Source: an uncultured Gemmatimonadota bacterium (GTDB taxonomy: Bacteria; Gemmatimonadota; Gemmatimonadetes; Palauibacterales; Palauibacteraceae). From it: a stretch of DNA of 64,000 bases. Below the pieces are notes generated by a model. It did not search any database and was not told where the DNA came from. It worked only from the letters and a program-made list of their open reading frames with translations. Position 1 is the first letter of the stretch. Every line of letters begins with the position of its first letter. The translations under genes were made by a program, and so were the position numbers. Location: the NCBI GenBank assembly GCA_964550085.1, contig CAZJXR010000001.1, positions 13,027 through 77,026 on the forward strand, read 5' to 3'. This document shows, piece by piece, positions 15,539 through 57,084 of this stretch.

Positions 15539-15626
15539 CCGCGCGCGGCTGGACACCCTCACGCCCCCTCCGTACATTCCGGCCCTCCCAACCCCACTGC
15601 ACGGTTCGACCTCACGGAAGACAGAA

Positions 15627-17356: not shown

Positions 17357-17371
17357 CTGCACACCAGCGGC

Positions 17372-17863: not shown

Positions 17864-18036
17864 GGCAGAGAAGCTGCCTTCCCCTCCCGCACCGGTCAAA
17901 CCGCGTCCGGGCTCGCGGGGTTGGCCTCGGTGGCACGGCTCGATAAGCTGAGGACGAGGAGCGGCTCAGGGTTGCGGACCGCACTGTCGGGGTCTCGCGC
18001 CGTCGATCCGCGACGCGTTTGGAGAGTCGACGACGA

Positions 18037-19074
18037 ATGAGTTTGAGGGAAGTGCTGGAACCGCTGCGGCGCTGGGGCGCCGACGGAGGCGCGACCGCGG
18101 TCGCGACCCTGTATCGGGTCCGTCGCTCCGCCCCGCGGCCGCCTGGCGCCCGATTCGCAGCCAGCGAGCGGGGCGACATCGCGGGCTCGATCTCGAGCGG
18201 CTGCGTGGAGGGCGATCTGTTCGAGCGACTTCAGCAGGTGATCGCCACCGGCGAGCCGGCTGTCATCGAGTACGGCATCAGCGACGAGATGGCGGCCGGC
18301 GTGGGCCTCTCCTGTGGCGGCGAGATCGCCGTACTGCTGACGCCTCACGATCCGACGCGTCCCGTGTGGTCCGTCGTCGCGGATGCGATGGCGTCGGGCG
18401 AGGCGTGCGTGCTGGTGACGGGAATCTCCGAACAGGTACGGGGTAGCGCGCTGCTCGTGCGGGCGGACGGGTCCGTGGTGGGCGAGCTGGGGGTCGCCGG
18501 TCTGCTCTTGCAGGTACCGGCGAGCGTGGCGCCGATGTTCGACACGGGCGGCACGCGCTCGTTCGAGATCGCGGGGCACGAGCTGTTTGCCGAGGCCTTC
18601 CTGCCTCCGGCACGCGTAGCGATCATCGGGGCGTCGCCCGTGTCGGAAGCCCTCTGCCACCTGGCGGCGTGGGCCGGGCTCGAGGTGACGGTCATCGACC
18701 CGCGCCAGGCGCTGGCGCCGCCGGAGCGCTTCCCCGATGCGCGGGCGGTCTTCCACGACTGGCCCCGCGAGGGCCTGGAACGGCTGCGGCTCGACCGGTA
18801 CCTGAACGTCGTGGTCCTCGCTCACGACCCGAAGCTCGACATTCCCGCGCTGGCCGCGGCGCTCGAGGCCGGATGTCTCTACGTCGGTTTGCTGGGCGGC
18901 GGCCGGACCCAGAAGCTGCGGCGCGCGGCGCTCGCCGAGCTCGGATTCGGGGAGGAAGCGCTCGGCCGAATCCGGGGACCGGTCGGCCTCGACATCGGCG
19001 CCGACACCCCGGTGGAGATCGCGCTTTCCATCATGGCCGAGCTGGTGGCGGTCCGCCACGGCGCGCATCCGTGA
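18037..19074 (+). CDS. xdhC: XdhC/CoxI-family molybdoenzyme maturation factor
   Basis: N-terminal XdhC_CoxI domain (ISSGCVEGDLFE) and C-terminal Rossmann-like domain (RVAIIGASPVSEAL). Confidence 0.8.
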   Translation: MSLREVLEPLRRWGADGGATAVATLYRVRRSAPRPPGARFAASERGDIAGSISSGCVEGDLFERLQQVIATGEPAVIEYGISDEMAAGVGLSCGGEIAVLLTPHDPTRPVWSVVADAMASGEACVLVTGISEQVRGSALLVRADGSVVGELGVAGLLLQVPASVAPMFDTGGTRSFEIAGHELFAEAFLPPARVAIIGASPVSEALCHLAAWAGLEVTVIDPRQALAPPERFPDARAVFHDWPREGLERLRLDRYLNVVVLAHDPKLDIPALAAALEAGCLYVGLLGGGRTQKLRRAALAELGFGEEALGRIRGPVGLDIGADTPVEIALSIMAELVAVRHGAHP

Positions 19075-28330: not shown

Positions 28331-28415
28331 CGCCTGTCCCGTCACCAGGTCGCCTGTCGCGTCATGATGTCTGCCTATCGCGTCACGATGCCTGCTTGTC
28401 GCGTCATGATGTGGT
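28331..28415. repeat. Array of 21-bp direct repeats (3 good copies plus 1 degenerate), each containing TCATGA, in the mobA-dacB intergenic region
   Basis: gcgtca recurs at 28359, 28380 and 28401 (exact 21-nt period). Units are cgcctgtcgcgtcatgatgtc / tgcctatcgcgtcacgatgcc / tgcttgtcgcgtcatgatgtg. The dacB start itself sits in a related tcatgatatcgcctgtccc context. Confidence 0.8.
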
Positions 28416-29042
28416 CCCTTTCGATGCGCTTCCGGCGAGCAGCGATTCGGCCAGCCGCCGGTCCTCGGGTCGGTTCACGTTCATGAACATGGTCGCCGGA
28501 TCACCGTAACGGGCCACCTGCTGCGCGTCCAACACGACCACCCGGATCGCGGGGTAAAAGGAAACTACCGCGCGCTCCCCGCGCGCGAGGGCCGCTTCGA
28601 TCGCCCCGCGACATCCGATGCCATACACGGCGCACAGCGGCTCGACCCCGCGCGGCCCCTCGCTGGCGGCGGCGGTCACCGCATTGCGGTCGGCCTCGTC
28701 GACCAGGCGTGCCAGGAGCGCCGGTGGGAGGAAGGGCATGTCGCAGGCAACCGTGAGTGCCACAGCGTATCCCTCCCCCTCGGCCCAACGCACTGCCGTA
28801 TAGACGCCACCCAGTGCCCCGAGTCCCGGCCGCACGTCTGGACGCACATCCGTCTCGATCTCCGCGTAGGTGGCGAGGTCGTTGGCCACCACCACGACGC
28901 GATCGACGGCGTCGCGCAGCGCATCGCCGACTCGATCGATGATGCGGTGGCCGCCGACGCGGGCCAGCGCCTTGTGGGAGCCGAAGCGCCGATTCTGGCC
29001 GCCCGACAGGATGACGCCGAGCGCCTCCGACCGTTCGCTCAT
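28404..29042 (-). CDS. mobA: Molybdenum cofactor guanylyltransferase
   Basis: LGVILSGGQNRRFGSHKAL N-terminal motif. ATG at 29042 inside track ORF 28404..29702. ATGA overlap with fdhD. Confidence 0.8.
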   Translation of the reverse strand: MSERSEALGVILSGGQNRRFGSHKALARVGGHRIIDRVGDALRDAVDRVVVVANDLATYAEIETDVRPDVRPGLGALGGVYTAVRWAEGEGYAVALTVACDMPFLPPALLARLVDEADRNAVTAAASEGPRGVEPLCAVYGIGCRGAIEAALARGERAVVSFYPAIRVVVLDAQQVARYGDPATMFMNVNRPEDRRLAESLLAGSASKGTTS

Positions 29043-29815
29043 CGCGCGGACGCTGCCGGGGTGGGGAGATACACGTACGGCTGCGGACGGCGGGCTCGCC
29101 CGACGATCGTCAAGCCGCACGCGCCGGCGACGTCCCGCGCCAGGGTGGTTGGAACCGACATCGAGGCCACGCCCGGCACACCGGCGCGACACAGCTTGTA
29201 CGCGATGGCGCCCGATATCCGTGCGGTCAGAATGAGGCTTACATCGCGGGCCGCAAGCCCGCGGAGCGCCGCGGTGCCCATGAGCTTGTCGACCAGGTTG
29301 TGACGCCCGACATCCTCCAGCACCGTGACCAGCTGGCCCTCCGATACGAGGGCGCCGGTGTGTACGCCACCGCCGGCGTCCCGCAAGGTCGCCCGCTCGA
29401 ACATGGCGGTGAACAGACGGTGCAGACGGTCCGAATCGAGGAGCGCCACATCGACGGGGGCCGGGTGGCGCCGTGCGGCGGGAGCGCCAGCGGACCGGCG
29501 GGCGATGGGATCCGCGCCGGGGCCGATCTCGCCCCGCTCGCCGGACTCGTCCGGGACCCGAGACGGTGCGGAGTGCAGCTCGACCCGAATGCACGATCCC
29601 TCGGGATCCGTCTCGGTCCGGGCGACCGCGCGCGCCGAGTCGATGATGCCTTCGCCGAGCAACCAGCCGACGGCGAGCGCGTCGAGATGCCCCGACGAGC
29701 AATAGAAGCGGGTCGTCTTCCTCCCGTCCACGTAGAGCGTGACCTCACGCTCCTCGGCCGCGTACGGGCCGTCGTCGGTTGACCGATCCTCCGTGGCGCT
29801 CCGTTCGGCTGTCAT
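29039..29815 (-). CDS. fdhD: Formate dehydrogenase accessory sulfurtransferase
   Basis: GRHNLVDKLMG and C-terminal CGLTIVG FdhD-like motifs. 258 aa. Confidence 0.75.
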   Translation of the reverse strand: MTAERSATEDRSTDDGPYAAEEREVTLYVDGRKTTRFYCSSGHLDALAVGWLLGEGIIDSARAVARTETDPEGSCIRVELHSAPSRVPDESGERGEIGPGADPIARRSAGAPAARRHPAPVDVALLDSDRLHRLFTAMFERATLRDAGGGVHTGALVSEGQLVTVLEDVGRHNLVDKLMGTAALRGLAARDVSLILTARISGAIAYKLCRAGVPGVASMSVPTTLARDVAGACGLTIVGRARRPQPYVYLPTPAASAR

Positions 29816-29818
29816 CGG

Positions 29819-30559
29819 TCAAAAGTAGTACCACAGGGTGAGGCTGAGCTCGAAGTTGTTGATCCAATCCGAGCTCTCCGCCGTCGGCGCCCCTTCCTCG
29901 GCGATCTTGAGCAGGATGTCAGGCCGGAAGAAGCCCTCCGGGGCCTGGATGCGATACAGGTGATCCCGGATCTCGGCCGCCAGGCCGACCTTCTGACCGA
30001 ACAGCCGCTCGATTCCGAGGCCGAGGTCGAACACCGGCTGGGTTCCGAGCTCGAAGCGGAACGGACCGGATGGAATCGCCAGCTCCGGACTCCGCTCCTC
30101 GTTCACCCCGAAGATGACGCCACCGCCGAGCACCAGATAGGGCTGAATGGCGTGCCACGTCCGCGCTCCGGTGAACGAGAACTGCACGCCCCCCTGCAGA
30201 ATGATCCAGTTGAGGCCGACCGTGTCGATCGGTGTCGGATACGTGTCCACTCGGGGATCGATCACGTACAGGTCCGGACTCAACCCGTAGCCGGTGTTGA
30301 TCTCGAGCGACAGGGGACTGCTCACGCGCACCCGAAGTCGGGCGCCGATATCCGGCGTCGGTCCGGGACCCATGTCGAGCATGCCACGGTTGGCGAACAG
30401 GTACCCGCCGTAGACGCCGACGCGAAACCCGGGCTCGATCCACCGGTACGGCGTGTCGATCGCGTCGCCGCCCTCGAGCTCGAAGTCCTGGGCACGCAGA
30501 TCCGGCACGAACATCAGGAACAGGACGGCGCAGCAGGATGTCAGGCGCTGGATTCGCAA
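29819..30559 (-). CDS. Outer-membrane beta-barrel (porin-like) protein
   Basis: Alternating amphipathic beta-strands, C-terminal ...LTLWYYF ending in Phe (OMP signature). TTG start at 30559 with GAGG RBS gives signal MRIQRLTSCCAVLFLMFVPDLRAQ. Track ORF extends to 30799. Confidence 0.5.
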   Translation of the reverse strand: MRIQRLTSCCAVLFLMFVPDLRAQDFELEGGDAIDTPYRWIEPGFRVGVYGGYLFANRGMLDMGPGPTPDIGARLRVRVSSPLSLEINTGYGLSPDLYVIDPRVDTYPTPIDTVGLNWIILQGGVQFSFTGARTWHAIQPYLVLGGGVIFGVNEERSPELAIPSGPFRFELGTQPVFDLGLGIERLFGQKVGLAAEIRDHLYRIQAPEGFFRPDILLKIAEEGAPTAESSDWINNFELSLTLWYYF

Positions 30560-30741
30560 GTCGGTGCCTCGGTTCTCTTTGTCCGGGGGCTCGTGCTCCC
30601 ACACTGGTGGGCTGCAGCGCGTCGATACCACCCCACGGCGGGCGACGAGTTCTGATTGACATGGTTTCCGCCCGGTCTCTATACTCGACCGGGCCGATGG
30701 GTACGACCTTGCGACGACGACGGCGGCCTGCCAGGCGCCGC

Positions 30742-31866
30742 ATGAACCTCTGTCGATCGGCGACGGAATGTAGACGGGCAGATCGGGCATTTCCAGCATT
30801 CCGGAGCCGGTTTCGACCGTACTCCATCCCAGCCGTCGTGGCCCTGGCCGTGCTCACCGCCGTCCCGGCCGCCCGCGGTCAGACCGTGGTGGTGGCCATT
30901 CCGCAGGAGAACATTCGTCAGCCGCCGCAGGGCGCAACCCCCGGGAAGCTGCTCGGGACCGTGTACGAGGGCACCCCGCTGGCGGTGGTCGGGCGTCGAG
31001 CGCAGTGGCGCCAGGTGACGCTCGAAGGCTGGATCTGGTCGGAGTCGGTTCGCACCACGGCGCGCGACGGCTTCGACCTGGTCGTCGCCAAGCGGGGCGG
31101 CGAGAATCTGCGGGCGCTGCCCAACGGACCGGTTCTCGGCCGTCTCCTGCAGGGCTTTCTCCTCGAGCGGATCGGCCAGCAGGGCGGGTGGACCCGCGTG
31201 CGGCGAACGGCGTGGATTTGGGGTCCGTCACTCGGCGCGCCGCCGCCCGAGTCGGCGCCCGAGACGCAGACGCCGACCGCCGAGCCGCAGGTCGCCGCCG
31301 AGGTGGATCCCGGTGCGCCGGTGTCCGACCGATCCACGGCCGCCGATCGGTCGTCGACATCCTCCGATCGCCTCGCGGTTCCGGAGGGGGGAGCGTACCT
31401 GCTCGTGTCGCCCGACGGGGATACGCTCGGTCACCTCGAACCCGGGGCGGATCTGCGCGTCCTCGCCCGACAGGGAACATGGGCGCGGGTGCGACTCGAC
31501 GCGTGGGTATGGACGCCGAGCTTCCTGACCGAAGAGGAACAGGCGAGCACCCAGCATCTCGGCGCCAGCGACCTGCGGGCGAATCCCGAGGCTTACAACG
31601 GACGTACCGTCCAGTGGGAGGTGCAGTTCGTGTCCATGGAGCAGGCCGACGCGGTGAGGACGGACTTCTACGAGGGTGAACATTTCATCCTCGCCCGTGC
31701 CCCGGACGCGTCGGATGGCTTCGTGTACCTGGCGGTGCCCCCGGAACTGGTCCCGGTGGCCGCGGAATTCCGGCCGTTGCAGACGATCCGGGTGCTGGCG
31801 CGCGTGCGCACCGGCGCTTCGTCGCAGATGGGCGCCCCGATCCTCGACCTTCTCGCCGCTGAATAG
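30742..31866 (+). CDS. Secreted protein with three SH3b-like repeats (GxW.RV...WIW)
   Basis: Repeats RAQWRQVTLEGWIWSE, QQGGWTRVRRTAWIWGP and RQGTWARVRLDAWVWTP. Hydrophobic signal-like segment SIPAVVALAVLTAVPAARGQ after a long basic N-region. ATG at 30742. Confidence 0.45.
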   Translation: MNLCRSATECRRADRAFPAFRSRFRPYSIPAVVALAVLTAVPAARGQTVVVAIPQENIRQPPQGATPGKLLGTVYEGTPLAVVGRRAQWRQVTLEGWIWSESVRTTARDGFDLVVAKRGGENLRALPNGPVLGRLLQGFLLERIGQQGGWTRVRRTAWIWGPSLGAPPPESAPETQTPTAEPQVAAEVDPGAPVSDRSTAADRSSTSSDRLAVPEGGAYLLVSPDGDTLGHLEPGADLRVLARQGTWARVRLDAWVWTPSFLTEEEQASTQHLGASDLRANPEAYNGRTVQWEVQFVSMEQADAVRTDFYEGEHFILARAPDASDGFVYLAVPPELVPVAAEFRPLQTIRVLARVRTGASSQMGAPILDLLAAE

Positions 31867-38790: not shown

Positions 38791-39201
38791 ATGAACGGAG
38801 CGGCCGAGCCGAGAACAACGCAGGGCGACGGAACGGTGTTGCGAGTCGTGTATGGGGCACTGGTGGCGGGCGTGCTGGTGTTCGCCGCCGTCGCCCGGCT
38901 GCTCGTCGGGCCGGTGGGCGCGTTCGAAGAACTGCCCGTGCGCCTTGTATGGCTGACGGCCGCCGCAGCCTGCGTATTCGCCGCCGGCCTGTTCCGCACT
39001 CGCCTGGCCCGTGCCTCGGAACGGCCGTCACCCGGGCCGGCGCTGGTGGTATGGTCGTTGGCGGAGGGGCAGGCGCTGCTCGGGATCGTGGGCTATCTGC
39101 TGACCGGCGACGTGATCGTCTTCTGGGCGGCGCTCGCCGCCTTCGCCTACCTGTTCGCTCGTTATCGGCCGACGGTGTTCGTCACCCGTCCGCATCGATA
39201 G
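38791..39201 (+). CDS. Hypothetical small membrane protein (4 predicted TM helices)
   Basis: 136 aa with four hydrophobic stretches. Confidence 0.4.
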   Translation: MNGAAEPRTTQGDGTVLRVVYGALVAGVLVFAAVARLLVGPVGAFEELPVRLVWLTAAAACVFAAGLFRTRLARASERPSPGPALVVWSLAEGQALLGIVGYLLTGDVIVFWAALAAFAYLFARYRPTVFVTRPHR

Positions 39202-39406
39202 CCTCGAACACCTCTTCATGCGTGCAGTGGCGTCCGGTGCTTTTTTTGGAGTAGACGAGGCGACCGTCGGCCAGCACCTCGAACACACCTCCGCCCGAGG
39301 CGATCAACTCGACCTCGGTGTCGTATCGGTCTTTCAGCGCTGCCGCCAGACTGGCGGCTTTGGGCTGGTAGTTTCAGACGCTGCAGTATTCGATGCTGAT
39401 GCGCAC
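39182..39406 (-). CDS. selW: SelW-like (Rdx family) selenoprotein with in-frame UGA (Sec) at codon 11
   Basis: Reverse-strand GTG 39406 after a GGAGAAGG RBS. Translation MRISIEYCSV-U-NYQPKAASLAAALKDRYDTEVELIASGGGVFEVLADGRLVYSKKSTGRHCTHEEVFEAIDADG* gives the CxxU motif plus the GSGGxFEV..DG.L..SK..GRF core of bacterial SelW. TGA is at 39376..39374. Missed by the ORF track. Confidence 0.75.
39336..39373 (-). other. Putative bacterial SECIS-like hairpin downstream of the SelW UGA
   Basis: mRNA ...UGA AACUACCAGCCCAAA GCCGCC AGUCU GGCGGC AGCGCUG. Perfect 6-7 bp GC stem with a small U/G-containing loop about 15-21 nt 3' of UGA, flanked by CAGC/GCUG pairing. Confidence 0.45.
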
Positions 39407-39450
39407 TCGCCTTCTCCCTGGAGTTAGAGTCGATCGGTCCGACGCCGGCC

Positions 39451-40695
39451 GTGGCTGCGTTGCGACGAGCCGCGCCGTATCTGTCCGCGCTCACCGGCCG
39501 GCGCACACGGTCTGCGGCCGGCCGGCGCGTGCCCCAACCTGTCCGCCTCGTCGGCCGACAGCAAGAGAGGCCGCGAAGGCTTCGGATGACCGACGCGGGC
39601 CGACGCGCGTCGCCGGCGGCGGAGAAGGAACGTTTGAGTGACGGTGCGATGGTGTTGGAGCGGCTCGAGGAAGAGCTGGAACGTGAGGCCGCCCGGCTGC
39701 CCGACTCCCGGTCTGCCGTCTTCGACCTGCGGCTCGAAACGCGAGGGGGCAAGATCGTGCTGTGCGGATCGACCACCGACCCGGTCAGGACGGAGGAGCT
39801 GGCCGGGCGCCTGCGGGCCGCTGCGCGACCGATGGTGGTGAGAAGCCGAGTCCGCCCCCTGCCGGATCAGTCGCAGCTCGGCGATCGAACGGCGGGGATC
39901 GTGCGGCACGCGTGGGTGCCGGCGCGTCGCGAGCCTCGCCACCAGGCGGAGCTGGTGTCGCAATGGATCTGCGGTGAGCCGCTCGCCCTGCTCGAGGAGC
40001 AGGGCGACTGGCTGCGATGCCGGAGCCCGGATGGCTACATCGCGTGGACGCCCGGCGGCGGAATCATCCGGGTCTCCCCCGCCCGCGCCGACGCCTGGCG
40101 GCGGGTAGCGACGGGATTCGCCCTCGGCGCCCGGTTCGAGCTGCCGGATGGCATGCGTTCGATCCGGCTTCCCTGGGGCGCGCGGGTCGAGCCCGTGGCG
40201 GATGGAAAGGTGCGACTTGCCGACGGCTCGATCGCTCGACCGGAGACGCGGACCGGGTGGACGGCGGTCATGGAGCCGCGGCTCCCCGACCACGGGAGCG
40301 CTGTCGTCGAGTCGGCCCGCAGGTGGCTGGGCGTGCCGTACGTGTGGGGCGGACGCACCGACTGGGGAACTGACTGCTCCGGCTTCGTCCAGGCGCTGTT
40401 CGCGGCACACGGCATCGAGTTACCGCGCGACTCGGACCAGCAGCTCGCGCGGGGCCCACGGGTGAACCCGGAACAAGGGTTCGAGCCGGGTGATCTGGTC
40501 TTCTTCGCCGAGCGCCCGGACCGGGTGAGCCACGTGGCGATGGCGGTCGGAGGCTCGACGATCATCCATGCGGCGGCATCCAACGGAGCGGTCGAGTGCA
40601 ACGACCTGAACGGCGATCGTCCCCTCGAGGGTCGCCTGCGCCGCTGGCTGGCCGGCGCCACGCGCCCCCTGGCTGCGGCCGGGGCCTCCGTCTGA
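39451..40695 (+). CDS. C40 family (NlpC/P60) peptidase with N-terminal SH3b-like domains (YkfC/dipeptidyl-peptidase VI-like)
   Basis: WLGVPYVWGGRTDWGTDCSGFVQALFAAHGIELPRDSDQQ catalytic-Cys signature, with downstream His (SHVAMAV). No signal peptide seen. True start may be an internal ATG (39586). Confidence 0.8.
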   Translation: MAALRRAAPYLSALTGRRTRSAAGRRVPQPVRLVGRQQERPRRLRMTDAGRRASPAAEKERLSDGAMVLERLEEELEREAARLPDSRSAVFDLRLETRGGKIVLCGSTTDPVRTEELAGRLRAAARPMVVRSRVRPLPDQSQLGDRTAGIVRHAWVPARREPRHQAELVSQWICGEPLALLEEQGDWLRCRSPDGYIAWTPGGGIIRVSPARADAWRRVATGFALGARFELPDGMRSIRLPWGARVEPVADGKVRLADGSIARPETRTGWTAVMEPRLPDHGSAVVESARRWLGVPYVWGGRTDWGTDCSGFVQALFAAHGIELPRDSDQQLARGPRVNPEQGFEPGDLVFFAERPDRVSHVAMAVGGSTIIHAAASNGAVECNDLNGDRPLEGRLRRWLAGATRPLAAAGASV

Positions 40696-41120: not shown

Positions 41121-41376
41121 GGCGTCAATGCTAGTCGGCCGCATCGGTCCGCGCCAACCCGACCTCGTGCGCTTGATCCGCCCCTGTAGGACCGGCTCGC
41201 CGGGTCGTCGCACGGCGATCCGCGGCGTCGAGGGGGACAGGTCGGCGTGCCGGTACCATCGACATTGCCGACATGGCTGAAGTCCTCTATCCTGCATGCC
41301 TTCCACGGGGCCGAGGCGCCGGCTCCCAGCAGCGGAACGTCATCCGTCGAGGCCCGGCGAGCCGGATGTGCAACCG

Positions 41377-44300
41377 ATGGAACTCACAGCCAAGGCGAAG
41401 AGACATCTCGATGAGCTGATCGAGAGGCTCGACCACGGGGCCCTCGACGCCCCGGTCGAAGCGATCGGTCTCTTCACACGCAAACTGCTGGCCCGTGCCA
41501 GCACGGAGTTCTTCGAGGCACGCGACGCGCAGACGATCGCGTCCGATGTGCAGGCCCTGTTCGAGTTCGTCGCCGCCACCCCTCCCAGCTCGATAGCAGC
41601 GCGAGTCCGTTTCATTCCGGATCGACCGCACCGTGCGATCGTCGAGACCGTTATGCCGGACTGCCCGTTCATCGTCGACACGCTGCGGGAGTACTTGCAT
41701 TCGATCGGGTTCGGGGTGATTCACCTTCTGCACCCCGTGTTCGTCATCGATCGCGACAGGAAAGGCGGCATTCTCCAGATCCGGGATCGTCGCGCCGAGG
41801 GTCCGAAGACGTCGGTCGTCTATATCGTGATCGACGGTCACGTCGATCACGAGCAGGTCACCCACCTCGAGACGGAGATCCGGGAGCGCCTGCGCCAGGT
41901 CCAGATCGTGACCGCCGATTTCCACGCCATGCTCGAAAAGGCGAACGAGATCGTCGCTGATCTGGAGGTGGAGAAGAAGCGCTTTCCGTGGAGGGCGGCC
42001 GAGTTCGAGGAGATTGCCGATCTCCTGCGTTGGCTGGAGGATGGCTGCTTCGTGTTTCTCGGCTACCGGGCATACAACCTGTTCACCGATCACGCCGGAG
42101 CCCGGGTGATCCAGGTCGAGCCCGGCTCGGGCCTCGGAGTCCTGCGCGACGAGTCGACCTCCAAGTACTTCGAGCCGCAGCCGCTCGACGAGCTGGACGC
42201 CAACCTGCGTGCCCGCATCCTCGGCGGACCGATGCTGATCACCTCCAAGTCGAACGCGGAATCTCCCGTGCACCGGCGGGCACGGATGGACGACATCAGC
42301 ATCAAGAAGCTGGGTCCGAACGGTGAGGTCGAGGGAGAGCGACGGTTCCTCGGCCTGTTCACGGCCAAGGCCGTGTCTCAGGACGCATCCAAGATCCCCA
42401 TTCTGCGCCGCAAGCTGCGCGAGATCCTCGAAGCGGAGGGAGCCTCCGAAGGGTCGCACGACTACGGGCTCATCATTCGCGTCTTCAACAGCATGCCGAA
42501 AGAGGAGGTCTTCTTCGCCACCGTGCCGGAGCTGCTCGGCGAGATCCGGGTGGTCATGGAGACCGAGGGCGTGGACGAGGTTCGGGTGACGGTCCGCCCC
42601 GATCCGCTCGGTCGTGGCGTGTTCGTCATGGTGATCCTGCCAAAGATCCGCTTCTCGGGCGAAGTCAGGCTGAAGATCGAGGAGGCGCTCACGGAGGCGT
42701 ACGAAGGGACGATCCTCGCCGACCATCTGGCGCTGATCAGCGAGGGAGAACAGGCCCGCTTGCACTACTACCTGTCGTCCCAGCTCAAGGACGTGACGTC
42801 GGCCGATGTGTCCGAGCTCGAGGAGCACATCCGGCGAACGGCCCGCAGCTGGGAAGACCGGTTGTCCGAATCGCTCGAGCGCGAGCTCGACGCGGAACGG
42901 GCGCACGAACTGGTCGACCGCCACAAGGGCGACTTTTCCGCCCAGTACCAGGCCACTGTCGATGTCGACTCGGCGGTTCGTGACCTGGTCAATCTCGAGG
43001 CGCTGGAGACGACCGGTATGCAGCAGGTGGTGCTCGAGGAGCTCGACCAGCCTCGGCCGCACGCCGCGCTGCTCAAGATGTACGCTCCGCGGGGCCTGTT
43101 CGTCCTCAGCGACGTGATGCCCACGCTCGAGAACGCGGGCTTTCGGGTCATCGAAGCCGATGCGCTCGAGATCGGACAGACCGGGAGGCCCGGTGCCAGC
43201 ACCATCCACCGTTTCCAGGTGGAGACGCCCGCCGCCTGGAACGTGGACCGGAGGACGGTCGAGGCGCGGGTAGCCGCTGAGCTGACGGCCGTCCAGACGG
43301 GCAGGGCCGACGACGATCCTCTGAATTCTCTCGTCCTCTCGGCCGGGCTCGACTGGGAGCAGGTGGCCGTCCTGCGCGCGTACGCCGGCTACGCCTTCCA
43401 GATCGTCGCCGTAACCAGCCGCAGCGGATCGCGTCGGCCCCTCACCCAGCATCCGGCAACGGCCCGGCTCCTGTACGAGGTGTTCGAGGCGAAGTTCGAT
43501 CCCGCGATCGACGAGTCGGAACGGCGGTCGCTGCTCCGCAAGCGGGTCGGTGAGTACCGCGACTCGCTGGAGGGCGTGCACAGCATCGATGACGATCGCA
43601 CCTGTCGGCGGCTTCTCGCTCTCGTGCGAGCCACGGTGCGCACGAACTTTTTCCAGCGCCGCATGCGGGAGCGTGGAGAGCTGACCGTGGCGCTCAAGTT
43701 CGACTGCTCGCGCCTCGATTTTCTGCCGCGCCCGCGGCCGAAGTTCGAGGTGTACGTGCACAGCTCTCGAACGGAGGGGGCTCATCTGCGCATGGACTCG
43801 ATCGCCCGGGGAGGGATCCGCTGGAGTGATCGGATCGATGAGTTCCGAGTCGAGGTCCTCGGACTGGTCAAGACCCAGCAGGTCAAGAACGCTGTCATCG
43901 TGCCGGCCGGCGCGAAGGGCGCGTTCATCGTGCGCCGCCCGCCCATCGATCGCGACGCGCGGGCCGAGGTGGGACTCAGCAGCTACCGCGAGTTCATTCG
44001 CTCGCTGCTCGACGTGACCGACAACGTGAGCGGCGCCGGCGTCGAGCACCCGCCCGACTCGGTGGTCTGGGACGGCGAGGACCCCTACCTCGTGGTGGCG
44101 GCAGATAAAGGCACGGCGCAGAACTCGGATACGGCCAACGAGCTGGCAAAGGAATACGGGTTCTGGCTCGGCGACGCGTTCGCCTCCGGTGGCTCGCACG
44201 GATACGACCACAAGGCGCTCGGCATCACCGCGCGTGGCGCCTGGGAGTCCGTCACCCGTCACTTCGCCGAGCTGGGGACGGACATTCAGGAAGAGGAATT

Positions 44301-46221
44301 CACCGTCGTCGGGATCGGCGACATGAGTGGCGACGTGTTCGGCAACGGAATGCTGTTGAGTCGGACGATTCGTCTGGTCGCCGCCTTCGATCACCGCCAC
44401 GTGTTCATCGACCCGTCGCCGGATCCCGTCATCAGCTACACGGAACGCCAGCGGCTGTTTTCGCTCCCGCGGTCGAGTTGGGCGGACTACGATCCGAGCC
44501 TGATCAGCGAGGGTGGTGGGGTGTACGAGCGCGGGGCCAAGTCGATCAGCCTCACACCCGAGGCGCGTCAGCTCCTCCGCATCAACGACGAGAACGTGAA
44601 CGGGGAGACGTTGATTCGCGCCATCCTGTGCGCGCCGGTCGACCTGCTGTGGAACGGCGGCATCGGGACCTACGTGCGGGCCAGCACCGAGACCAACGCC
44701 GATGTGGGAGACCCCGGCAACGACGCCGTCCGGGTGGTCGCCACCGACCTGTCGGTCAAGGTGATCGGCGAGGGCGGAAACCTCGGCCTCACCCAGCGGG
44801 CGCGGGTCGAGTACGCCCTCAACGGGGGCCGCCTGAACACGGACGCGCTCGACAACGCTGCCGGCGTCGACATGTCGGACCACGAGGTGAACCTCAAGAT
44901 CTTCGTCGACAGCGCCGTGCAGGCGGGCTCACTCGACGAGGCCGCGCGCAACCACCTGTTGCGCGAGGTGACCGACGATGTGGCAGCGGCAGTGCTGCGT
45001 GACACCTACCTGCAGAGCCTGGCGGTGAGTCTGGATCAACAACGGGCGATCAAGCATGCGACCGAGTTCCGGGACAGTCTCACCACACTGGAGAGGTTGG
45101 GCCAGCTGGATCGCAAGCTCGAGGATCTGCCTACATCCGAGGAGTTGAACGAGCGCCAGGAGGCAGGTTTGGCGCTCACCCGTCCCGAGTTAGCCGTGAT
45201 GCTCGCCTACTCGAAGATGCATCTCAAGCGCGGGATCGCGGATTCGGAGCTCCCGGATGACCCGGCCCTGTTCGCACTCCTGCGCTCCTATTTCCCGGAC
45301 CGGGTGGTCGAAACGGTCGGAGTGGAGCACCTCGGCGGTCACCGACTGCGTCGCCGGATCGTCAGCGCGATGCTGACCAACCTCATGGTGGATCGCATCG
45401 GTGCCACTGGACACCTGCGGGTGGCCCGCGAAAGTGGCCTGCCTGCCGAACAGGTGGCCGGTGCTTGGTATGCGGCTTACAGACTGGGCGACGCGGGGTC
45501 GGTGTACGAGCGCCTGGAGGCCCAGGGCGGCGCCGTCACCGCCGGGCTCCAGCTCCAGTGGTTGTTGAGCGTGGGCGGAACCCTCGAGCGGGCGACCCGC
45601 TGGATTCTGTCCAATGTGGAGGAGGGGTACAGGGTCGAGCGCACCCTGGAGCGCCTTCAGGAACCGATCCGCGAGCTGCGGCGCGAGTTCGGAGGCCTGC
45701 TGACGGAGAAGAGCCGGGCGGAGCTCGAAAACCGGATGGCCCTGCACGAGATGGATGGCCTGGACGCGGAGCTGGCCGCCGATCTCGCCACCTTCGAGTA
45801 CCTCGACGCGCTGCTGCCGGTCGCGCAGCTGGCGACGGAAACGGACATCCCCGCTACCCTCGCCGGCGAGGTCTACTTCGGGCTCACGGATGAGATCGAC
45901 TTTCCGTGGCTCCAGGAGCAGCTGACCCTCGTCCCCCAGGCAGACCACTGGCAGCGTCGGGCGGTGCAGGTGCTGAGCCTGGAGCTGGAGAACGCACGGG
46001 CGCGCATGGCCGGCAGCATCTTGCGGCACATCGGGTCGGCGGAGGAGGTCGAGGGCGCGCGGGCTGACTTCCGGGAGCGTTTCTCGCGAGACTTGAGTCG
46101 AATCCGGCAGGTGCTGGACGAGGTGCGCCAGGCCGACTACGTGTCGCTCGCCTCGTTGATGGTGGCGGTGTCGGCGATCCGGGCCCAGTCGCGGGTGCTG
46201 GCGGAGCGGACCGTTACCTAG
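41377..46221 (+). CDS. gdhB: NAD-specific glutamate dehydrogenase, large (~180 kDa) form
   Basis: ~1614 aa. Catalytic-core motifs (VPAGAKGAFIV, DKGTAQNSDTANELA, GGSHGYDHKALGITARG) match the Bac_GDH family. The long antisense ORF 41287..44883 is a known artefact of this gene family. Confidence 0.85.
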   Translation: MELTAKAKRHLDELIERLDHGALDAPVEAIGLFTRKLLARASTEFFEARDAQTIASDVQALFEFVAATPPSSIAARVRFIPDRPHRAIVETVMPDCPFIVDTLREYLHSIGFGVIHLLHPVFVIDRDRKGGILQIRDRRAEGPKTSVVYIVIDGHVDHEQVTHLETEIRERLRQVQIVTADFHAMLEKANEIVADLEVEKKRFPWRAAEFEEIADLLRWLEDGCFVFLGYRAYNLFTDHAGARVIQVEPGSGLGVLRDESTSKYFEPQPLDELDANLRARILGGPMLITSKSNAESPVHRRARMDDISIKKLGPNGEVEGERRFLGLFTAKAVSQDASKIPILRRKLREILEAEGASEGSHDYGLIIRVFNSMPKEEVFFATVPELLGEIRVVMETEGVDEVRVTVRPDPLGRGVFVMVILPKIRFSGEVRLKIEEALTEAYEGTILADHLALISEGEQARLHYYLSSQLKDVTSADVSELEEHIRRTARSWEDRLSESLERELDAERAHELVDRHKGDFSAQYQATVDVDSAVRDLVNLEALETTGMQQVVLEELDQPRPHAALLKMYAPRGLFVLSDVMPTLENAGFRVIEADALEIGQTGRPGASTIHRFQVETPAAWNVDRRTVEARVAAELTAVQTGRADDDPLNSLVLSAGLDWEQVAVLRAYAGYAFQIVAVTSRSGSRRPLTQHPATARLLYEVFEAKFDPAIDESERRSLLRKRVGEYRDSLEGVHSIDDDRTCRRLLALVRATVRTNFFQRRMRERGELTVALKFDCSRLDFLPRPRPKFEVYVHSSRTEGAHLRMDSIARGGIRWSDRIDEFRVEVLGLVKTQQVKNAVIVPAGAKGAFIVRRPPIDRDARAEVGLSSYREFIRSLLDVTDNVSGAGVEHPPDSVVWDGEDPYLVVAADKGTAQNSDTANELAKEYGFWLGDAFASGGSHGYDHKALGITARGAWESVTRHFAELGTDIQEEEFTVVGIGDMSGDVFGNGMLLSRTIRLVAAFDHRHVFIDPSPDPVISYTERQRLFSLPRSSWADYDPSLISEGGGVYERGAKSISLTPEARQLLRINDENVNGETLIRAILCAPVDLLWNGGIGTYVRASTETNADVGDPGNDAVRVVATDLSVKVIGEGGNLGLTQRARVEYALNGGRLNTDALDNAAGVDMSDHEVNLKIFVDSAVQAGSLDEAARNHLLREVTDDVAAAVLRDTYLQSLAVSLDQQRAIKHATEFRDSLTTLERLGQLDRKLEDLPTSEELNERQEAGLALTRPELAVMLAYSKMHLKRGIADSELPDDPALFALLRSYFPDRVVETVGVEHLGGHRLRRRIVSAMLTNLMVDRIGATGHLRVARESGLPAEQVAGAWYAAYRLGDAGSVYERLEAQGGAVTAGLQLQWLLSVGGTLERATRWILSNVEEGYRVERTLERLQEPIRELRREFGGLLTEKSRAELENRMALHEMDGLDAELAADLATFEYLDALLPVAQLATETDIPATLAGEVYFGLTDEIDFPWLQEQLTLVPQADHWQRRAVQVLSLELENARARMAGSILRHIGSAEEVEGARADFRERFSRDLSRIRQVLDEVRQADYVSLASLMVAVSAIRAQSRVLAERTVT

Positions 46222-46328
46222 CGGGCCCGCCCCTGCATAGGGGAGCACCAGCCCCGGACCCCGAGTGACGCACCGCCGGCGGGTCACGCGGGGGGCAGCC
46301 TCGCACCGGGCGCCGCCGCCCCCGCGTT

Positions 46329-46390
46329 CCGACTCGCGGCACGCAGCCGCTACCGTCCGGACTCGCGGCGCGCAGCCGCGACTCCGCGGC
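46329..46390. terminator. GC-rich imperfect tandem repeats / stem-loops in the convergent gdhB-glnA intergenic region (likely bidirectional terminator)
   Basis: ccgactcgcggcacgcagccgc ... ccggactcgcggcgcgcagccgc, each containing a GCGGC-N5-GCCGC hairpin. No T-run, as usual in high-GC genomes. Confidence 0.35.
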
Positions 46391-47794
46391 TCAGTAGGTG
46401 GGCAGGTAGGTCTCCAGCTCCCACTCGCTCACCTGGGCGATGTAGTCGGTCCACTCCTCCTTTTTCGCCTCGACGTAGTGGGTCAGGATGTGCTCGCCCA
46501 GCGCATCACGCAGCACCTCATCGGCTTCCAGCTCGGCCACCGCCTCGGCGAGGTTGGCCGGCAGCGTTCCCATCTTGTACTTGCGGCGCTCCTCTTCACT
46601 GAGCTTCCACACGTTGGTGTCGACCGGAGGTCCGGGGTCGATCTGTCGGTGCAGCCCATCGAGTCCCGCCGCCAGCTGTACACCCAGAGCCAGGTACGGA
46701 TTGCAAGCGGGATCGGGCATCCGGAACTCGAGCCGGGTGCCGATGCCTCGCCGCTCCGGAACGCGAATGAGAGGAGAGCGATTCCGCCTCGACCACGCGA
46801 TGTTCACCGGCGCCTCGTAACCCGGCACCAGCCGCTTGTAGCTGTTCACGAGCGGGTTGGTCACGGCTGCGATCGCGCGCGCGTGTTCCTTGAGCCCACC
46901 GATATAGTGCCGCATCACGTCCGAGATCTGATATTCGCTCTCCGGATCGAAGAACGCGTTCTTTCCGCCCTTGAACAGCGATTGATGCGTGTGCATCCCC
47001 GAGCCGTTCTGTCCGAAAATCGGTTTGGGCATGAAGGTAGCGTGCAGTCCGTGCGCCAGGGCGGCGTTGCGAACGATGAACCGGAAGGTTGCCAGGTCGT
47101 CGGCCGTGCTGAGCGCGTCCGCGTACTTGAAGTCGATCTCGTGCTGGCCCGGCGCTACCTCGTGATGCGCCGCTTCCACCTCGAACCCCATCGCCTCGAG
47201 ATCCGTCACGATCATCCGACGTGCCTTCTCACCGAGATCGACCGGGGTAAGATCGAAGTAGCCGCCATGGTCGTGGGTGAGCGTCGTCGGCTCTCCCTGG
47301 CCGTTACGCTGGAAGAGGAAGAACTCCGCCTCGACCCCGGCGTTCATGACGTAGCCGAGCTCGGCGGCGGCGGCCGTGACGCGCTTCAGCGCCAGCCGCG
47401 GATCGCCGGCGAAGGGCGTCTCGTCAGGATTGTAGACGTCGCAGATGAGTCGCGCGACGCGGGATTCGGGATTCCCCCACGGAAACACGCGGAAGGTGCG
47501 CAGATCCGGCTTGAGGAGCATGTCGCTCTCCTCGATGCGGACGAACCCTTCGATCGAGGAACCGTCGAACATGATCTCCCCTTCCAGAGCCTTCTGGAAC
47601 TGGCTCGCCGGGACCTCGACGTTCTTGGAGTGTCCGAGGATGTCGGTGAACGTGAGTCGCATGAAACGAACGTTCAGCGCTCGGCACAATTCGAGGATGC
47701 CCGGGACTTCGGGCTCCGCGCCCAGGTGTTGACCGTACTCCGAGAATCGCATCCGGTGCTCCGGTGGTGCCGCGAACAATGCGTCGGGCGACAT
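46391..47794 (-). CDS. glnA: Glutamine synthetase, type I
   Basis: MFDGSSIEG, EAEFFLF, KPIFGQNGSGMHTHQSL and NRSPLIRVP motifs. Confidence 0.9.
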   Translation of the reverse strand: MSPDALFAAPPEHRMRFSEYGQHLGAEPEVPGILELCRALNVRFMRLTFTDILGHSKNVEVPASQFQKALEGEIMFDGSSIEGFVRIEESDMLLKPDLRTFRVFPWGNPESRVARLICDVYNPDETPFAGDPRLALKRVTAAAAELGYVMNAGVEAEFFLFQRNGQGEPTTLTHDHGGYFDLTPVDLGEKARRMIVTDLEAMGFEVEAAHHEVAPGQHEIDFKYADALSTADDLATFRFIVRNAALAHGLHATFMPKPIFGQNGSGMHTHQSLFKGGKNAFFDPESEYQISDVMRHYIGGLKEHARAIAAVTNPLVNSYKRLVPGYEAPVNIAWSRRNRSPLIRVPERRGIGTRLEFRMPDPACNPYLALGVQLAAGLDGLHRQIDPGPPVDTNVWKLSEEERRKYKMGTLPANLAEAVAELEADEVLRDALGEHILTHYVEAKKEEWTDYIAQVSEWELETYLPTY

Positions 47795-47869
47795 CGCACA
47801 TCCCTCCCAGTTCGGTGTGAGTGCCGGCGGCCGCGGGCGCGAGGCCCGACCGCGAGCGACGCGTCAGAC

Positions 47870-48010
47870 TGTCGAGCCGATGCTATGCACGTTTCGTGCG
47901 ACTGTCAACCGATATGTCATAAAGTGGCATATTAGAAAGAGTAATTGCTGCTATTTGTAAGCAATAATGATTATTAATCAAGAATTTTATGATCAATCGA
48001 GCAATATTGC
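47870..48010. promoter_or_regulatory. AT-rich divergent promoter island between glnA and the histidine-kinase gene; sigma70-like glnA promoter TTGACA-N17-TAGCAT on the reverse strand
   Basis: The ~110-bp stretch (tcataaagtggcatattagaaagagtaattgctgctatttgtaagcaataatgattattaatcaagaattttatgatc) is far more AT-rich than the rest of the window. Reverse strand reads TTGACAgtcgcacgaaacgtgcaTAGCAT (-35 at 47903-47908, -10 at 47880-47885). Confidence 0.45.
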
Positions 48011-48164
48011 CTCTCCCTCCGCCTCGTGGTTTCCGAGGGGTTGACGGTGTGCCGCGTCCGCGCGCCCCTCGTCGGCTGTTGCCCCCACGCCTCGCTGAGG
48101 CGCGGGCTGTGACTCACCGCCCGTCGAAGCCGTCCATTTCACGGCACTCACGAACGGGGAGGAT

Positions 48165-49529
48165 GTGCAAGCCGACACGACAGTCCTCGGCCGGTCCGTG
48201 CCGGCGACGTCCGACGAGGTCGCCCGGACGGCTGGCCGCACAGCTGCCGACAACACGGCTCGCGGCGCAGCGGGATCGCTGTCACTTCGGTTCAAGATGC
48301 TCAGCGGCCTCGCGATTCTACTGTTTCTGTCGCTCCTCGCATCGGCGTTCGTGACGGTCCTGTGGCTGCCACTGAGCGGACCATCGGGTGACCTCATGAC
48401 CGTGGTGGTCAGTCTCGCTTTCGTGTATGCCGCGGTACTGGTGTTCGCCGGAGACTATCTGCTGACGCGTCTGGTGCTCAGACCTGTGGAACAAGTCGTG
48501 GACGGAGTGGAGAAAATCGCGGCCGGAGACAAGGGGCATCGCCTGTCCGGGCGTGGCTCGCGTGAGATGCGCGGGCTGGCCACCACGGTGAACGCGATGG
48601 CGAGTCAGCTCCTGCTCAACCAGGAGAAGCTGGCCCGCAACGTGGAGTCGCTGAAAACGACCAATCGGGCGCTAAGCCAGACGAGGGCGGAGCTGGTGCA
48701 GGCGGAGAAACTCGCCACGGTCGGCATTCTGGCCGCCGGCATCGCACACGAGATCGGCAATCCGCTCGGCGCCATCCTCGGCTACCTCGAGCTCGCGCGA
48801 CGGGCGAACAATGCCGACGGATGGACCGACGACATCCGGGTCGAGGTGCAGCGAATCGATCGAATCATCAAAGCGTTGCACGACTACGCGCGTCCACGGA
48901 GCAGCACGCCGCGTCCCGTCGACGTCAACCGGACGGTCAGTGACACGGTGGAGCTGCTGGAGGTGCAGGGCAAGCTGAAAGGGATCGACGTGCGCCTCGC
49001 CCGCAGCGAACGGCTGGCACCGGTGCTCGCCGATCCCACGCAACTGCAACAGGTGCTGGTCAACTTGCTCCTGAACGCGTGTGATGCGCTGGCTCGAACG
49101 CCCGATGCCCGCATCGAGATGGAGACGAGCGAGGCGGTGTTCGATGCGGACGTCCAGGATGGTCCGACGCGGCGAGAGTCCGACCCCGCCGGGGTGGACT
49201 ATTCGCACCTCAGGCGGCTGCGAGATCTCCAGGCCGGGAGAGTGCACCTCCGCCTGGTGGATGGCGCTCCGATGGCCCGAATCGTGGTGGCCGATAACGG
49301 TCCAGGCATACCGGAAGCGCACTTGCAGCGAGTCTTCGAGCCCTTTTTTACCACCAAGGAACCGGGACGGGGCACCGGCCTGGGCCTCGCCGTCTCCGCC
49401 CGCCTGATCGAAGGAATGAACGGGATGATTCGGGCCGACAACCGGGCGCAGGGTGGTGCACGTTTCACTATTCAGCTCCCCATCTCGACGGAAAAGAACG
49501 CAAACTCAGCGGAGAAGAACGCGAAATGA
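48165..49529 (+). CDS. Sensor histidine kinase (HAMP-HisKA-HATPase; NtrB/AtoS-like)
   Basis: TM segments, a HAMP linker, H-box [18 protein letters not shown], and N/G1/G2 boxes ([23 protein letters not shown]). Start may be the internal ATG 48294 ([10 protein letters not shown]). Confidence 0.85.
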
Positions 49530-50890
49530 ACGTTCTGGTCATCGACGACGAGGCGGGCGTCCGCCGCACCGTTTCCCTCCTGCTGGAGGACGAAGGGTAC
49601 GCCGTGAACACGGCGGCCGATGGTCGGGAGGGGCTGAAAAAGGCACTCGACGATCCGACGGACCTCATTCTGTGCGATGTACGAATGCCGCAGATGGACG
49701 GCCTCAACTTTCTGGACGAGTACCGGAAGGAGGGGGGAGACGGCCTGGTCGTGATGATGACGGCGTACGGAAGCGAGGATCTGGCCGTGGAGGCGATGCA
49801 GCGGGGCGCCTACGACTACATCGCGAAGCCGTTCGCCCCTAACGAAGTGGTGCTGGTGCTCAAGAAGGCCGAGGAGCGCGAGAAGCTGTGGCGCGAGGTG
49901 GTCCGTCTGCGAGACCAGGTCAGCGCCGAGCGGCGCCATTCGGACATCGTGGCCAAGAGTGCCGGGATGAGCGCCGCCATCGACCTCGCCGACAAGGTCG
50001 CGCGTCATCGATCGACCGTGCTGATCACCGGTGCCAGCGGGACAGGGAAAGAGTTGATCGCGAGTCTCATCCACACCTCCTCCCCGCGCGCCGACGGCCC
50101 GTTCGTTCCGGTCAACTGTGGCGCGATTCCGGACAACCTGCTCGAGTCCGAGCTCTTCGGCCATGCCAAAGGGGCGTTCACCGGCGCGGCGGGCGCCCGG
50201 GCCGGTCTGTTCGAGGAAGCGAACGGGGGGACGCTGTTTCTGGATGAGATCGGCGAGCTCCCGCAAGCGCTGCAGGTGAAACTTCTGCGAGCTCTGCAGG
50301 AGGGAGAGATCCGTCGGGTCGGCGAGTCGAAGCCGCGCGAGGTGGACGTTCGAATTATCGCGGCGACCTCCCGGGACCTCGAGCGCGAGGTGCGCGAAGG
50401 TCGGTTCCGCTCCGACCTCTACTACCGCATCAACGTGGTTCACATCCACCTTCCGCCCCTGCAGCACCGGCCCGAGGATATCCCCCCCCTCGTCCGGCAT
50501 TTCGTGTCCAGGTTCAACAAGGCGCTCGGGCTCCAGATCACCGGCTTCGACCCGGCGGCAATGAAGCATCTGCTGGCCTACTCCTGGCCCGGCAATGTCC
50601 GTGAGTTGGAGAACGTCGTCGAACGGGCGATGGTGCTGGCGGACGGTCCGACCATGGATTCGGAGAAGCTGGCGGAGGCGATCCGGAATCCGGACTCCGC
50701 CTTCGGCCGGCCGGCCGAGAACCTGTCCGAGGACGAGCTGTCGGTCAAGAAGCGGACGGCCGAACTCGAGCGCCACCTGATCGCGCGAGCGCTCGAGGTG
50801 ACGGAGGGCAATCGGACCCGCGCTGCCTCGATCCTCGAGCTCAGCTACCGGGCGCTGCTGTATAAGATCCGGGAGTACGGACTGGGCTGA
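49526..50890 (+). CDS. Sigma54-dependent response regulator (REC + AAA+ activator + Fis-type HTH; NtrC family)
   Basis: REC (DLILCDVRMPQMDG), Walker A GASGTGKE, GAFTGA motif, ESELFGH, C-terminal HTH. ATGA overlap with the kinase gene. Confidence 0.9.
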   Translation: MNVLVIDDEAGVRRTVSLLLEDEGYAVNTAADGREGLKKALDDPTDLILCDVRMPQMDGLNFLDEYRKEGGDGLVVMMTAYGSEDLAVEAMQRGAYDYIAKPFAPNEVVLVLKKAEEREKLWREVVRLRDQVSAERRHSDIVAKSAGMSAAIDLADKVARHRSTVLITGASGTGKELIASLIHTSSPRADGPFVPVNCGAIPDNLLESELFGHAKGAFTGAAGARAGLFEEANGGTLFLDEIGELPQALQVKLLRALQEGEIRRVGESKPREVDVRIIAATSRDLEREVREGRFRSDLYYRINVVHIHLPPLQHRPEDIPPLVRHFVSRFNKALGLQITGFDPAAMKHLLAYSWPGNVRELENVVERAMVLADGPTMDSEKLAEAIRNPDSAFGRPAENLSEDELSVKKRTAELERHLIARALEVTEGNRTRAASILELSYRALLYKIREYGLG

Positions 50891-56906: not shown

Positions 56907-57062
56907 ATGTACGTAGGTCCCGAGACTCTCATGCCGCTCGCATCGGCGCTGGCCGCCGTGGCGGGTGTATTGCTGCTCTTCTGGCGCCGTACGGTGGGAG
57001 CTGCTCGCTCGAGTTGGCAGTTCGTGACGCGCAAGGTCTCGGCCCTGTTTACGGACCGCTGA
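56907..57062 (+). CDS. Small (51 aa) membrane-anchored protein
   Basis: ATG 56907 after strong RBS GAGGGAAAGG. MYVGPETLMPLASALAAVAGVLLLFWRRTVGAARSSWQFVTRKVSALFTDR: PE(T) motif, TM helix, Arg cluster. Confidence 0.35.
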   Translation: MYVGPETLMPLASALAAVAGVLLLFWRRTVGAARSSWQFVTRKVSALFTDR

Positions 57063-57084
57063 TACACGCGCCCGCCGAAGGAGC

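Follow-up and report, generated by a model that had tools for sequence, protein, structure and literature searches.

The locus considered here raises the question of how a TGA codon that interrupts a short reading frame is decoded, as an ordinary stop or as selenocysteine (Sec). It lies on the reverse strand of a 64,000-nucleotide stretch from an uncultured Gemmatimonadota bacterium of the family Palauibacteraceae (assembly GCA_964550085.1, contig CAZJXR010000001.1, positions 13,027 to 77,026), and this whole stretch is called the window in the following. A preliminary description, prepared from the letters alone, had proposed an unannotated SelW-like selenoprotein gene with a GTG start, a ribosome binding site, an in-frame TGA and a product of 74 amino acids (aa). 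Its coordinates and all of these features proved correct when the minus strand was checked. On the evidence presented below, we consider it highly probable that the locus functions as a gene encoding a SelW-like selenoprotein of 74 residues in the Rdx family.

Read on the minus strand from the GTG at 39406-39404, the open reading frame (ORF) contains a single in-frame UGA and yields V/M-RISIEYCSV-U-NYQPKAASLAAALKDRYDTEVELIASGGGVFEVLADGRLVYSKKSTGRHCTHEEVFEAIDADG, a translation of 74 residues including the U. Upstream, the GGAG core of the Shine-Dalgarno (SD)-like sequence GGAGAAGG ends 7 nt 5' of the GTG. The only conventional ORF in the selenoprotein frame, according to the program-made ORF list, is a 41-aa fragment with a TTG start (39307..39182). 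Two fragmentary ORFs to which the preliminary description had pointed, 39216..39776 on the minus strand and 39218..39427 on the plus strand, are both listed, but their frames differ from that of the selenoprotein.

The family of the product was assigned by profile searches in which the U of the 74-residue query was replaced by C. A SelW/Rdx identity had been claimed before, with an alignment to Pfam PF10262 (Rdx, formerly PF05169) as the suggested check, and this alignment bore it out with an E value of 2.1e-19 and 69.9 bits (cut-off 22.6) over profile positions 1-73 of 74. The NCBIfam equivalog NF041051, 'SelT/SelW/SelH family (seleno)protein', was matched with 94.7 bits (cut-off 88), and TIGR02174 (CXXU_selWTH) with 61.8 bits (cut-off 34.2). 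When only the part after the UGA was scored, the Pfam Rdx match fell to 46.5 bits, and the TTG fragment reached 30.9 bits. The ten residues 5' of the UGA thus contribute approximately 23 bits, which shows that a single domain extends across the UGA.

The CxxU motif is found near the N-terminus (IEYC-SV-U, residues 5-11). All sequence matches in the PDB were proteins of the Rdx fold, namely 2LJK (MIEN1/C17orf37), 2FA8 (Atu0228), 3DEX (SAV_2001), 2P0G ('Selenoprotein W-related protein') and 2NPB (mouse SelW), with E values of 3.9e-9 to 2LJK and 1.9e-3 to 2NPB. The CxxU of the selenoprotein aligns with the CxxC/U of each of them. Homology to these solved structures suggests a thioredoxin-like alpha/beta fold for the product as well.

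An additional cysteine is present in the motif G-R-H-C-T-H-E-E (39197-39214, minus strand; residues 58-63). It is conserved in the closest clade, which belongs to the Gemmatimonadota, while more distant relatives carry G-R-H-A, G-R-F-P or D-R-F-P at this site. It could be a resolving or regulatory cysteine.

With regards to the in-frame codon itself, the preliminary description had left to be checked whether relatives carry TGA or a Cys codon at this position. A collection of 5.8 billion proteins was searched with the Cys-substituted query and returned 14 relatives, all 50-55 aa long and spanning just the C-terminal 47-74% of the query. Such uniformly short entries are the signature of gene callers that start 3' of a common in-frame stop. 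No full-length CxxC close relative was present among the 5.8 billion proteins, only fragments beginning 3' of the UGA, and the expectation that standard annotation would miss the gene is thereby confirmed. The JGI name given to the fragments with 79-80% identity is 'selenoprotein W-related protein'. In the DNA 5' of the fragment genes, the same in-frame TGA follows a conserved M-x-[VI]-[ST]-I-E-Y-C-x-x in the related loci L001-L003 and L005-L008; the sequence of L004 ends just upstream of its TGA. The closest relatives, at 78-80% identity and with the same gene order, keep the selenoprotein features.

The comparison was widened by scanning a single genome for each GTDB species, which gave at least 503 relatives, of which the best 80 loci were kept. 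Altogether, the comparison covered 88 related loci, 80 of them from these species-representative genomes; the assemblies are independent and stem from several sequencing projects. TGA occupied the CxxU column in 88 of the 88 loci, and a Cys codon in none. Among the best 80 loci, 35 belonged to the Gemmatimonadota (including Longimicrobiales), to which all of the 11 top matches also belonged; the other lineages comprised Krumholzibacteriia, KSB1, Fibrobacteraceae, Planctomycetota, Desulfuromonadales, Acidobacteriota and others.

The frame is conserved 5' of the TGA as well, together with the start codon and the SD sequence, as can be seen from 81 distinct upstream segments. The tenth codon before the UGA was ATG, GTG or TTG in 75 of them, and 69 had an SD-like 4-mer ahead of the aligned start codon. 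Glu(-5) and Cys(-3) were invariant and Ile(-6) was found in 80 of the 81, each with more than one codon in use. This pattern points to purifying selection at the protein level on the peptide 5' of the UGA. Such selection would make no sense on a 10-mer, which is all that would be translated if the UGA were a stop, and this argues that the UGA is read through and supports its earlier interpretation as a Sec codon.

Bacterial Sec insertion depends on the RNA 3' of the UGA, where a hairpin GCCGCC-AGUCU-GGCGGC had been reported at a distance of 15-21 nt; it is present at 39358-39342. With the U of the UGA counted as position 1 (alignment columns below are the same nucleotide positions), positions 19-24 (GCCGCC) pair with positions 30-35 (GGCGGC) around the loop A25-G26-U27-C28-U29. 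As A25 and U29 can pair as well, the loop has 5 or 3 nt and the stem 6-7 bp. The stem starts 15 nt and the loop 21 nt after the UGA. The 61 nt from the UGA onwards fold with -18.3 kcal/mol, compared to a mean of -11.0 kcal/mol for shuffled sequences (z = -3.15), and 3 of 200 shuffles folded equally well.

The published model of the bacterial selenocysteine insertion sequence (SECIS) describes an upper stem of 4-16 bp that is capped by an apical loop of 3-9 nt (PMC13188914, Fig. 2). It further places a G at loop position 1 or 2, typically as N1-G-[G|U]-N-N2 with N1 and N2 pairable, and gives a distance of 16-37 nt between UGA and loop and a minimum free energy (MFE) of at most -7.5 kcal/mol (PMC13188914). 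The hairpin agrees with this model on all four points, with a loop of 5 (3) nt on 6-7 bp, the loop sequence A-G-U-C-U, a distance of 21 nt and -18.3 kcal/mol.

The same structure recurs in the relatives. For this comparison, 80 distinct homologous segments of 48 nt were aligned without gaps in identical register. An MFE of -7.5 kcal/mol or below was found for 74 of the 80 segments (median -13.8), and the loop read R-G-[U/G]-N-Y in all 80, with G26 invariant and A or G in column 25. Column 27 was U in 69 segments and G in 11, and column 29 was U in 78 of the 80. Within the 6-bp stem, 90% of the cells of the 80 sequences were paired, compared to 81.7 ± 0.7% in shuffles, none of which reached this value (0/500), and to 21-62% in controls with slid partners. 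Changes on both sides of the stem numbered 25, compared to 4.3 ± 1.8 in shuffles (0/500 reaching 25), and the stem covariation score was 0.207 compared to 0.067. The SECIS nature claimed for the hairpin thus holds with respect to the published model and to covariation. A lower stem, which the MFE fold of the window forms between positions 10-15 and 37-42, was also considered and rejected, as just 51% of its cells were paired in the homologues and it is not conserved.

Since the peptide Ala-Ala...Ala-Ala (GCN GCN ... GCN GCN) alone supplies four G-C pairs of the stem, the amino-acid sequence gives part of the pairing for free, and the pairs that carry information are those in which both partners are synonymous third-codon positions. 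Pair 21-33, which is of this kind, was CG in 62 sequences, GC in 9, AU in 2, UG in 2, UA in 1 and unpaired in 4. Pair 24-30, also between third positions, was CG in 76 sequences and AU, GC, UA or unpaired in one each. At pair 22-32, G-C is replaced by U-A in 9 sequences through coupled Ala->Ser and Ala->Glu changes (AASLAA -> ASRLEA), and here the protein appears to change so as to preserve the RNA pair. The SECIS stem lies in the codons of the conserved A-A-S-L-A-A, and peptide and RNA constrain each other. This coupling may be a clean example of an RNA structure steering the evolution of a protein sequence.

Taken together, the gene would be expressed as follows. Translation would begin at the GTG (39406), and the ribosome would meet the UGA (39376-39374) at codon 11. 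While the ribosome is positioned there, the G and U of the hairpin loop would recruit SelB-GTP-Sec-tRNA(Sec), and Sec insertion would replace termination, by analogy with the E. coli SelB/SECIS mechanism of Böck and colleagues (summarised in PMC1088965). The hairpin would then be unwound and itself translated as A-A-S-L-A-A before translation proceeds to the TGA at 39184-39182. The predicted product is a small thioredoxin-fold protein in which Cys8 and Sec11 may form a reversible selenenylsulfide, and it may serve as a thiol/selenol oxidoreductase or antioxidant. In the literature, the function of bacterial SelW-like proteins has been termed unclear, with a redox role inferred from the CxxU motif (PMC1088965).

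Several results weigh against a functional selenoprotein gene. A scan near the gene revealed neither a sigma-70-like promoter nor an intrinsic terminator, and Rfam gave no match at its gathering thresholds in the whole window. Rfam is not known to include a model of in-frame SECIS elements from bacteria, and if there is none, the absent match is expected. The sole Rfam match near the gene at E values up to 10, CRISPR-DR on the opposite strand, was dismissed as chance. With regards to the decoding machinery, ARAGORN found neither a tRNA, tRNA-Sec included, nor a transfer-messenger RNA in the 64-kb window or in 60 related loci (approximately 0.4 Mb in total), Pfam scans of approximately 46 window ORFs revealed no SelA, SelB or SelD domain, and tblastn with E. 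coli SelA, SelB and SelD (NC_000913.3) gave no match in the window and the 88 loci (610 kb). The tRNA density over the window and the 60 loci is somewhat low. The missing genes would suit a genome that has lost Sec decoding. Translation would then stop at the UGA with a 10-residue peptide, and the gene would be a pseudogene in decay; in bacterial evolution, selenoproteins and the Sec trait are indeed commonly lost (PMC1794560). However, 64 kb is a small part of a genome and too little to conclude that the machinery is absent, so its lack here is uninformative rather than negative. The gene itself bears no sign of such a decay: start, SD sequence and CxxU are intact, there is no frameshift, the Pfam match is full length, and the consensus SECIS stem of six Watson-Crick pairs and the invariant loop G are kept, as are the same features in the closest relatives. 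We therefore regard a relic as unlikely. From the preservation of the gene, the host would be expected to possess Sec-decoding machinery, the complete selABCD system that the preliminary description had taken to be implied.

A functional gene could still carry another residue at codon 11. One base change turns TGA into TGC or TGT, and Rdx homologues with Cys are known, among them 2FA8 and 2LJK, both CxxC proteins of solved structure, so a sequencing or assembly error in a gene for an ordinary CxxC Rdx protein might be suspected. Such an error is scarcely conceivable given the same TGA in all 88 loci from independent assemblies and several sequencing projects, where a Cys codon never occurs, the conserved and covarying SECIS hairpin 3' of the TGA, and the lack of any full-length CxxC close relative among the 5.8 billion proteins. 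Alternatively, the UGA could be reassigned to sense (genetic codes 4/25) or passed by near-cognate read-through, with Trp, Gly or Cys as the residue, since an in-frame UGA alone does not tell which amino acid goes in. We hold this to be very unlikely. TGA ends 26 of the 43 complete window ORFs selected by third-codon-position G+C (GC3), and the selenoprotein gene itself, and is therefore a normal stop in this genome. The search for adjacent in-frame ORFs gave no other read-through candidates: four same-strand ORF pairs in the window abut exactly in frame, three of them at TAG or TAA, and the TGA junction at 29816-29818 was rejected as a second site because it serves as the normal stop for an outer-membrane-like protein whose last residues are ...WYYF. 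Likewise, extensions past the TGA upstream of all GC3-selected window ORFs contained no CxxU/UxxC-like candidates. Finally, the UGA coincides with the catalytic Cys/Sec residue in the CxxC/U motif of Rdx proteins, and the hairpin fits the SelB-type SECIS model. Sec insertion at codon 11 is hence the interpretation we adopt, and the features of the gene and of its surroundings are listed in Table 1.

Table 1. Coordinates of the selenoprotein gene, its elements and other genes in the window.
Feature	Position	Strand	Basis or remark
SelW-like (Rdx family) selenoprotein gene	39182..39406	-	GTG start, Sec-UGA at codon 11, terminal TGA, 74 residues
Shine-Dalgarno-like GGAGAAGG, 5' of GTG	39410..39417	-	direct sequence reading
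C-x-x-U redox motif, TGC AGC GTC TGA	39374..39385	-	Sec codon UGA = 39376-39374
SECIS apical hairpin	39342..39358	-	stem 39358-39353 with 39347-39342; loop AGUCU 39352-39348, loop G 39351
Terminal TGA, ordinary stop without hairpin 3' of it	39182..39184	-	sequence and translation
136-aa ORF	38791-39201	+	good GC3 periodicity
fdhD	29039-29815	-	Pfam scan
MobA-like nucleoside triphosphate transferase (guanylyltransferase)	~28404-29040	-	directly downstream of fdhD, E 1e-32
Outer-membrane-like protein gene ending ...WYYF	within 28404-30853, stop 29816-29818	-	stop directly precedes fdhD ATG at 29815
ETF-domain protein	15471-16373	+	
CoxG	17375-17965	-	
XdhC/CoxI	17947-19071	+	
NAD-glutamate dehydrogenase	41296-46221	+	1641 aa
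Glutamine synthetase	46394-47863	-	
HAMP/HisKA sensor kinase	48099-49526	+	
Sigma-54-dependent response regulator	49298-50887	+	
Three consecutive paralogous sulfatase genes	57028-62944	+	Pfam Sulfatase, E 1e-42 to 1e-50

The surroundings of the gene are partly conserved. The window and L001-L003 have in common the order glutamate dehydrogenase, ACPS, NlpC/P60, Rdx, 137-aa ORF, 172-aa ORF and cupin. In the window, the 136-aa ORF and the selenoprotein gene are convergent, with an overlap of 20 nt at the 3' end of the latter; the ORF encodes hydrophobic membrane-like segments and has no Pfam match. This convergent overlap is conserved in the syntenic L001, L002 and L004, where the 137-aa ORF and the Rdx gene have 17 nt in common (L003 was left out of this comparison, as its sequence ends inside the 137-aa ORF). 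Loci L005-L008 come from a low-G+C marine lineage and carry a zinc alcohol dehydrogenase gene upstream of the Rdx gene and a gene for a HAD-family hydrolase 3' of it, which starts on the last base of the Rdx stop (approximately 10001-10824 in L005). Since the neighbours differ between the window and these loci, the family is without a conserved operon partner.

The preliminary description had further connected the gene to fdhD and mobA nearby, with the argument that formate dehydrogenases are often selenoproteins. Both genes are present, but they provide no evidence for a selenoprotein formate dehydrogenase, as the window contains no formate dehydrogenase catalytic subunit and no second in-frame TGA candidate. 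No other catalytic subunit of the molybdenum-bis(pyranopterin guanine dinucleotide) type was found in the 64 kb either. FdhD and MobA serve molybdoenzymes in general. A functional link between the selenoprotein gene and fdhD/mobA was thus discarded, since they are 10 kb apart, no formate dehydrogenase catalytic gene lies in the window, and the neighbours of Rdx vary by lineage. A second molybdoenzyme-related group is formed by the genes for the ETF-domain protein, CoxG and XdhC/CoxI, and no large subunit of a CO dehydrogenase or xanthine dehydrogenase was detected near them (15471-19071).

Two further groups of genes were noted in the window. A nitrogen-assimilation cluster (41296-50887) comprises the NAD-glutamate dehydrogenase, the glutamine synthetase, the sensor kinase and the response regulator, and the adjacency of the glutamate dehydrogenase and glutamine synthetase (GlnA) genes is conserved in L001. 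The stop-to-stop ORFs of the three sulfatases all include a long N-terminal extension.

For genome annotation, the value of the gene lies in the fact that its close homologues in the collection of 5.8 billion proteins are all stored as fragments without the catalytic CxxU. It also marks its host as a probable Sec user, which bears on the reading of other in-frame TGA codons in this genome. Beyond the single locus, we are evenly divided on whether the short Rdx clade (72-74 aa) is Sec-only, as its sequences in 88 of 88 loci from at least eight phylum-level groups would suggest, and especially widespread in Gemmatimonadota. If this were true, Sec decoding would be a common trait of the Gemmatimonadota, and the selenoprotein gene would be a convenient marker for it. 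The main texts and supplements that were searched yielded no statement on Sec use in this phylum. The gene also adds evidence that SelW-like proteins are overwhelmingly Sec-dependent. It opens no new biological question, and the role of bacterial SelW-like proteins is not made more testable by this copy.

For comparison with known systems, the more distant relatives are considered first. Mammalian SelW (2NPB) and MIEN1/C17orf37 (2LJK) have a homologous Rdx domain with CxxU or CxxC at the same position, and the bacterial protein is shorter. In eukaryotic selenoprotein genes, the SECIS lies in the 3' untranslated region, has a different structure and is bound by SBP2 and eEFSec (PMC1088965). The Cys-type bacterial Rdx proteins, such as Atu0228 of Agrobacterium (2FA8) and SAV_2001 of Streptomyces (3DEX), belong to the same fold family and carry their motif at the same position. 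However, they have CxxC, approximately 105 residues and no need for a SECIS, compared to CxxU and 74 residues here.

With regards to the RNA, the SECIS elements of E. coli fdhF and fdnG are likewise hairpins that lie within the reading frame shortly behind the UGA, and their G+C-rich stem closes a small apical loop in which a G-U is exposed. In contrast to them, only the apical stem of 6-7 bp is conserved here, and there is neither a conserved lower stem nor a bulged U. The loop of the fdhF SECIS is G-G-U-C, compared to A-G-U-C-U in the window, where the loop G-U lies approximately 3 nt further from the UGA.

The closest counterparts are the bacterial SelW-like proteins themselves. CxxU proteins of this type with an in-frame bacterial SECIS were described in 2005 (PMC1088965), and in marine metagenomes no prokaryotic selenoprotein family is more abundant (PMC1088965, PMC2398784). 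In the Sargasso Sea data, 48 Sec forms stood against 7 Cys forms (PMC1088965), and in the Global Ocean Sampling data, where the family was again the most abundant, 427 against 56 (PMC2398784). Few or no Cys homologues were found in Sec-using organisms (PMC1794560). The members described from both data sets and from complete genomes, such as those of Geobacter sulfurreducens and Desulfotalea psychrophila, share with the gene described here the full-length domain, the CxxU near the N-terminus and an in-frame SECIS that directly follows the UGA and carries a G in its small apical loop, and the Sec form is strongly predominant there as it is here (PMC1088965, PMC2398784, PMC1794560). No difference in kind separates them; the copy in the window comes from a genome with 68% G+C and from a closest clade with the extra Cys. 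The gene is an unannotated member of a long-known and very common selenoprotein family, a result that is correct but will not surprise the specialist.

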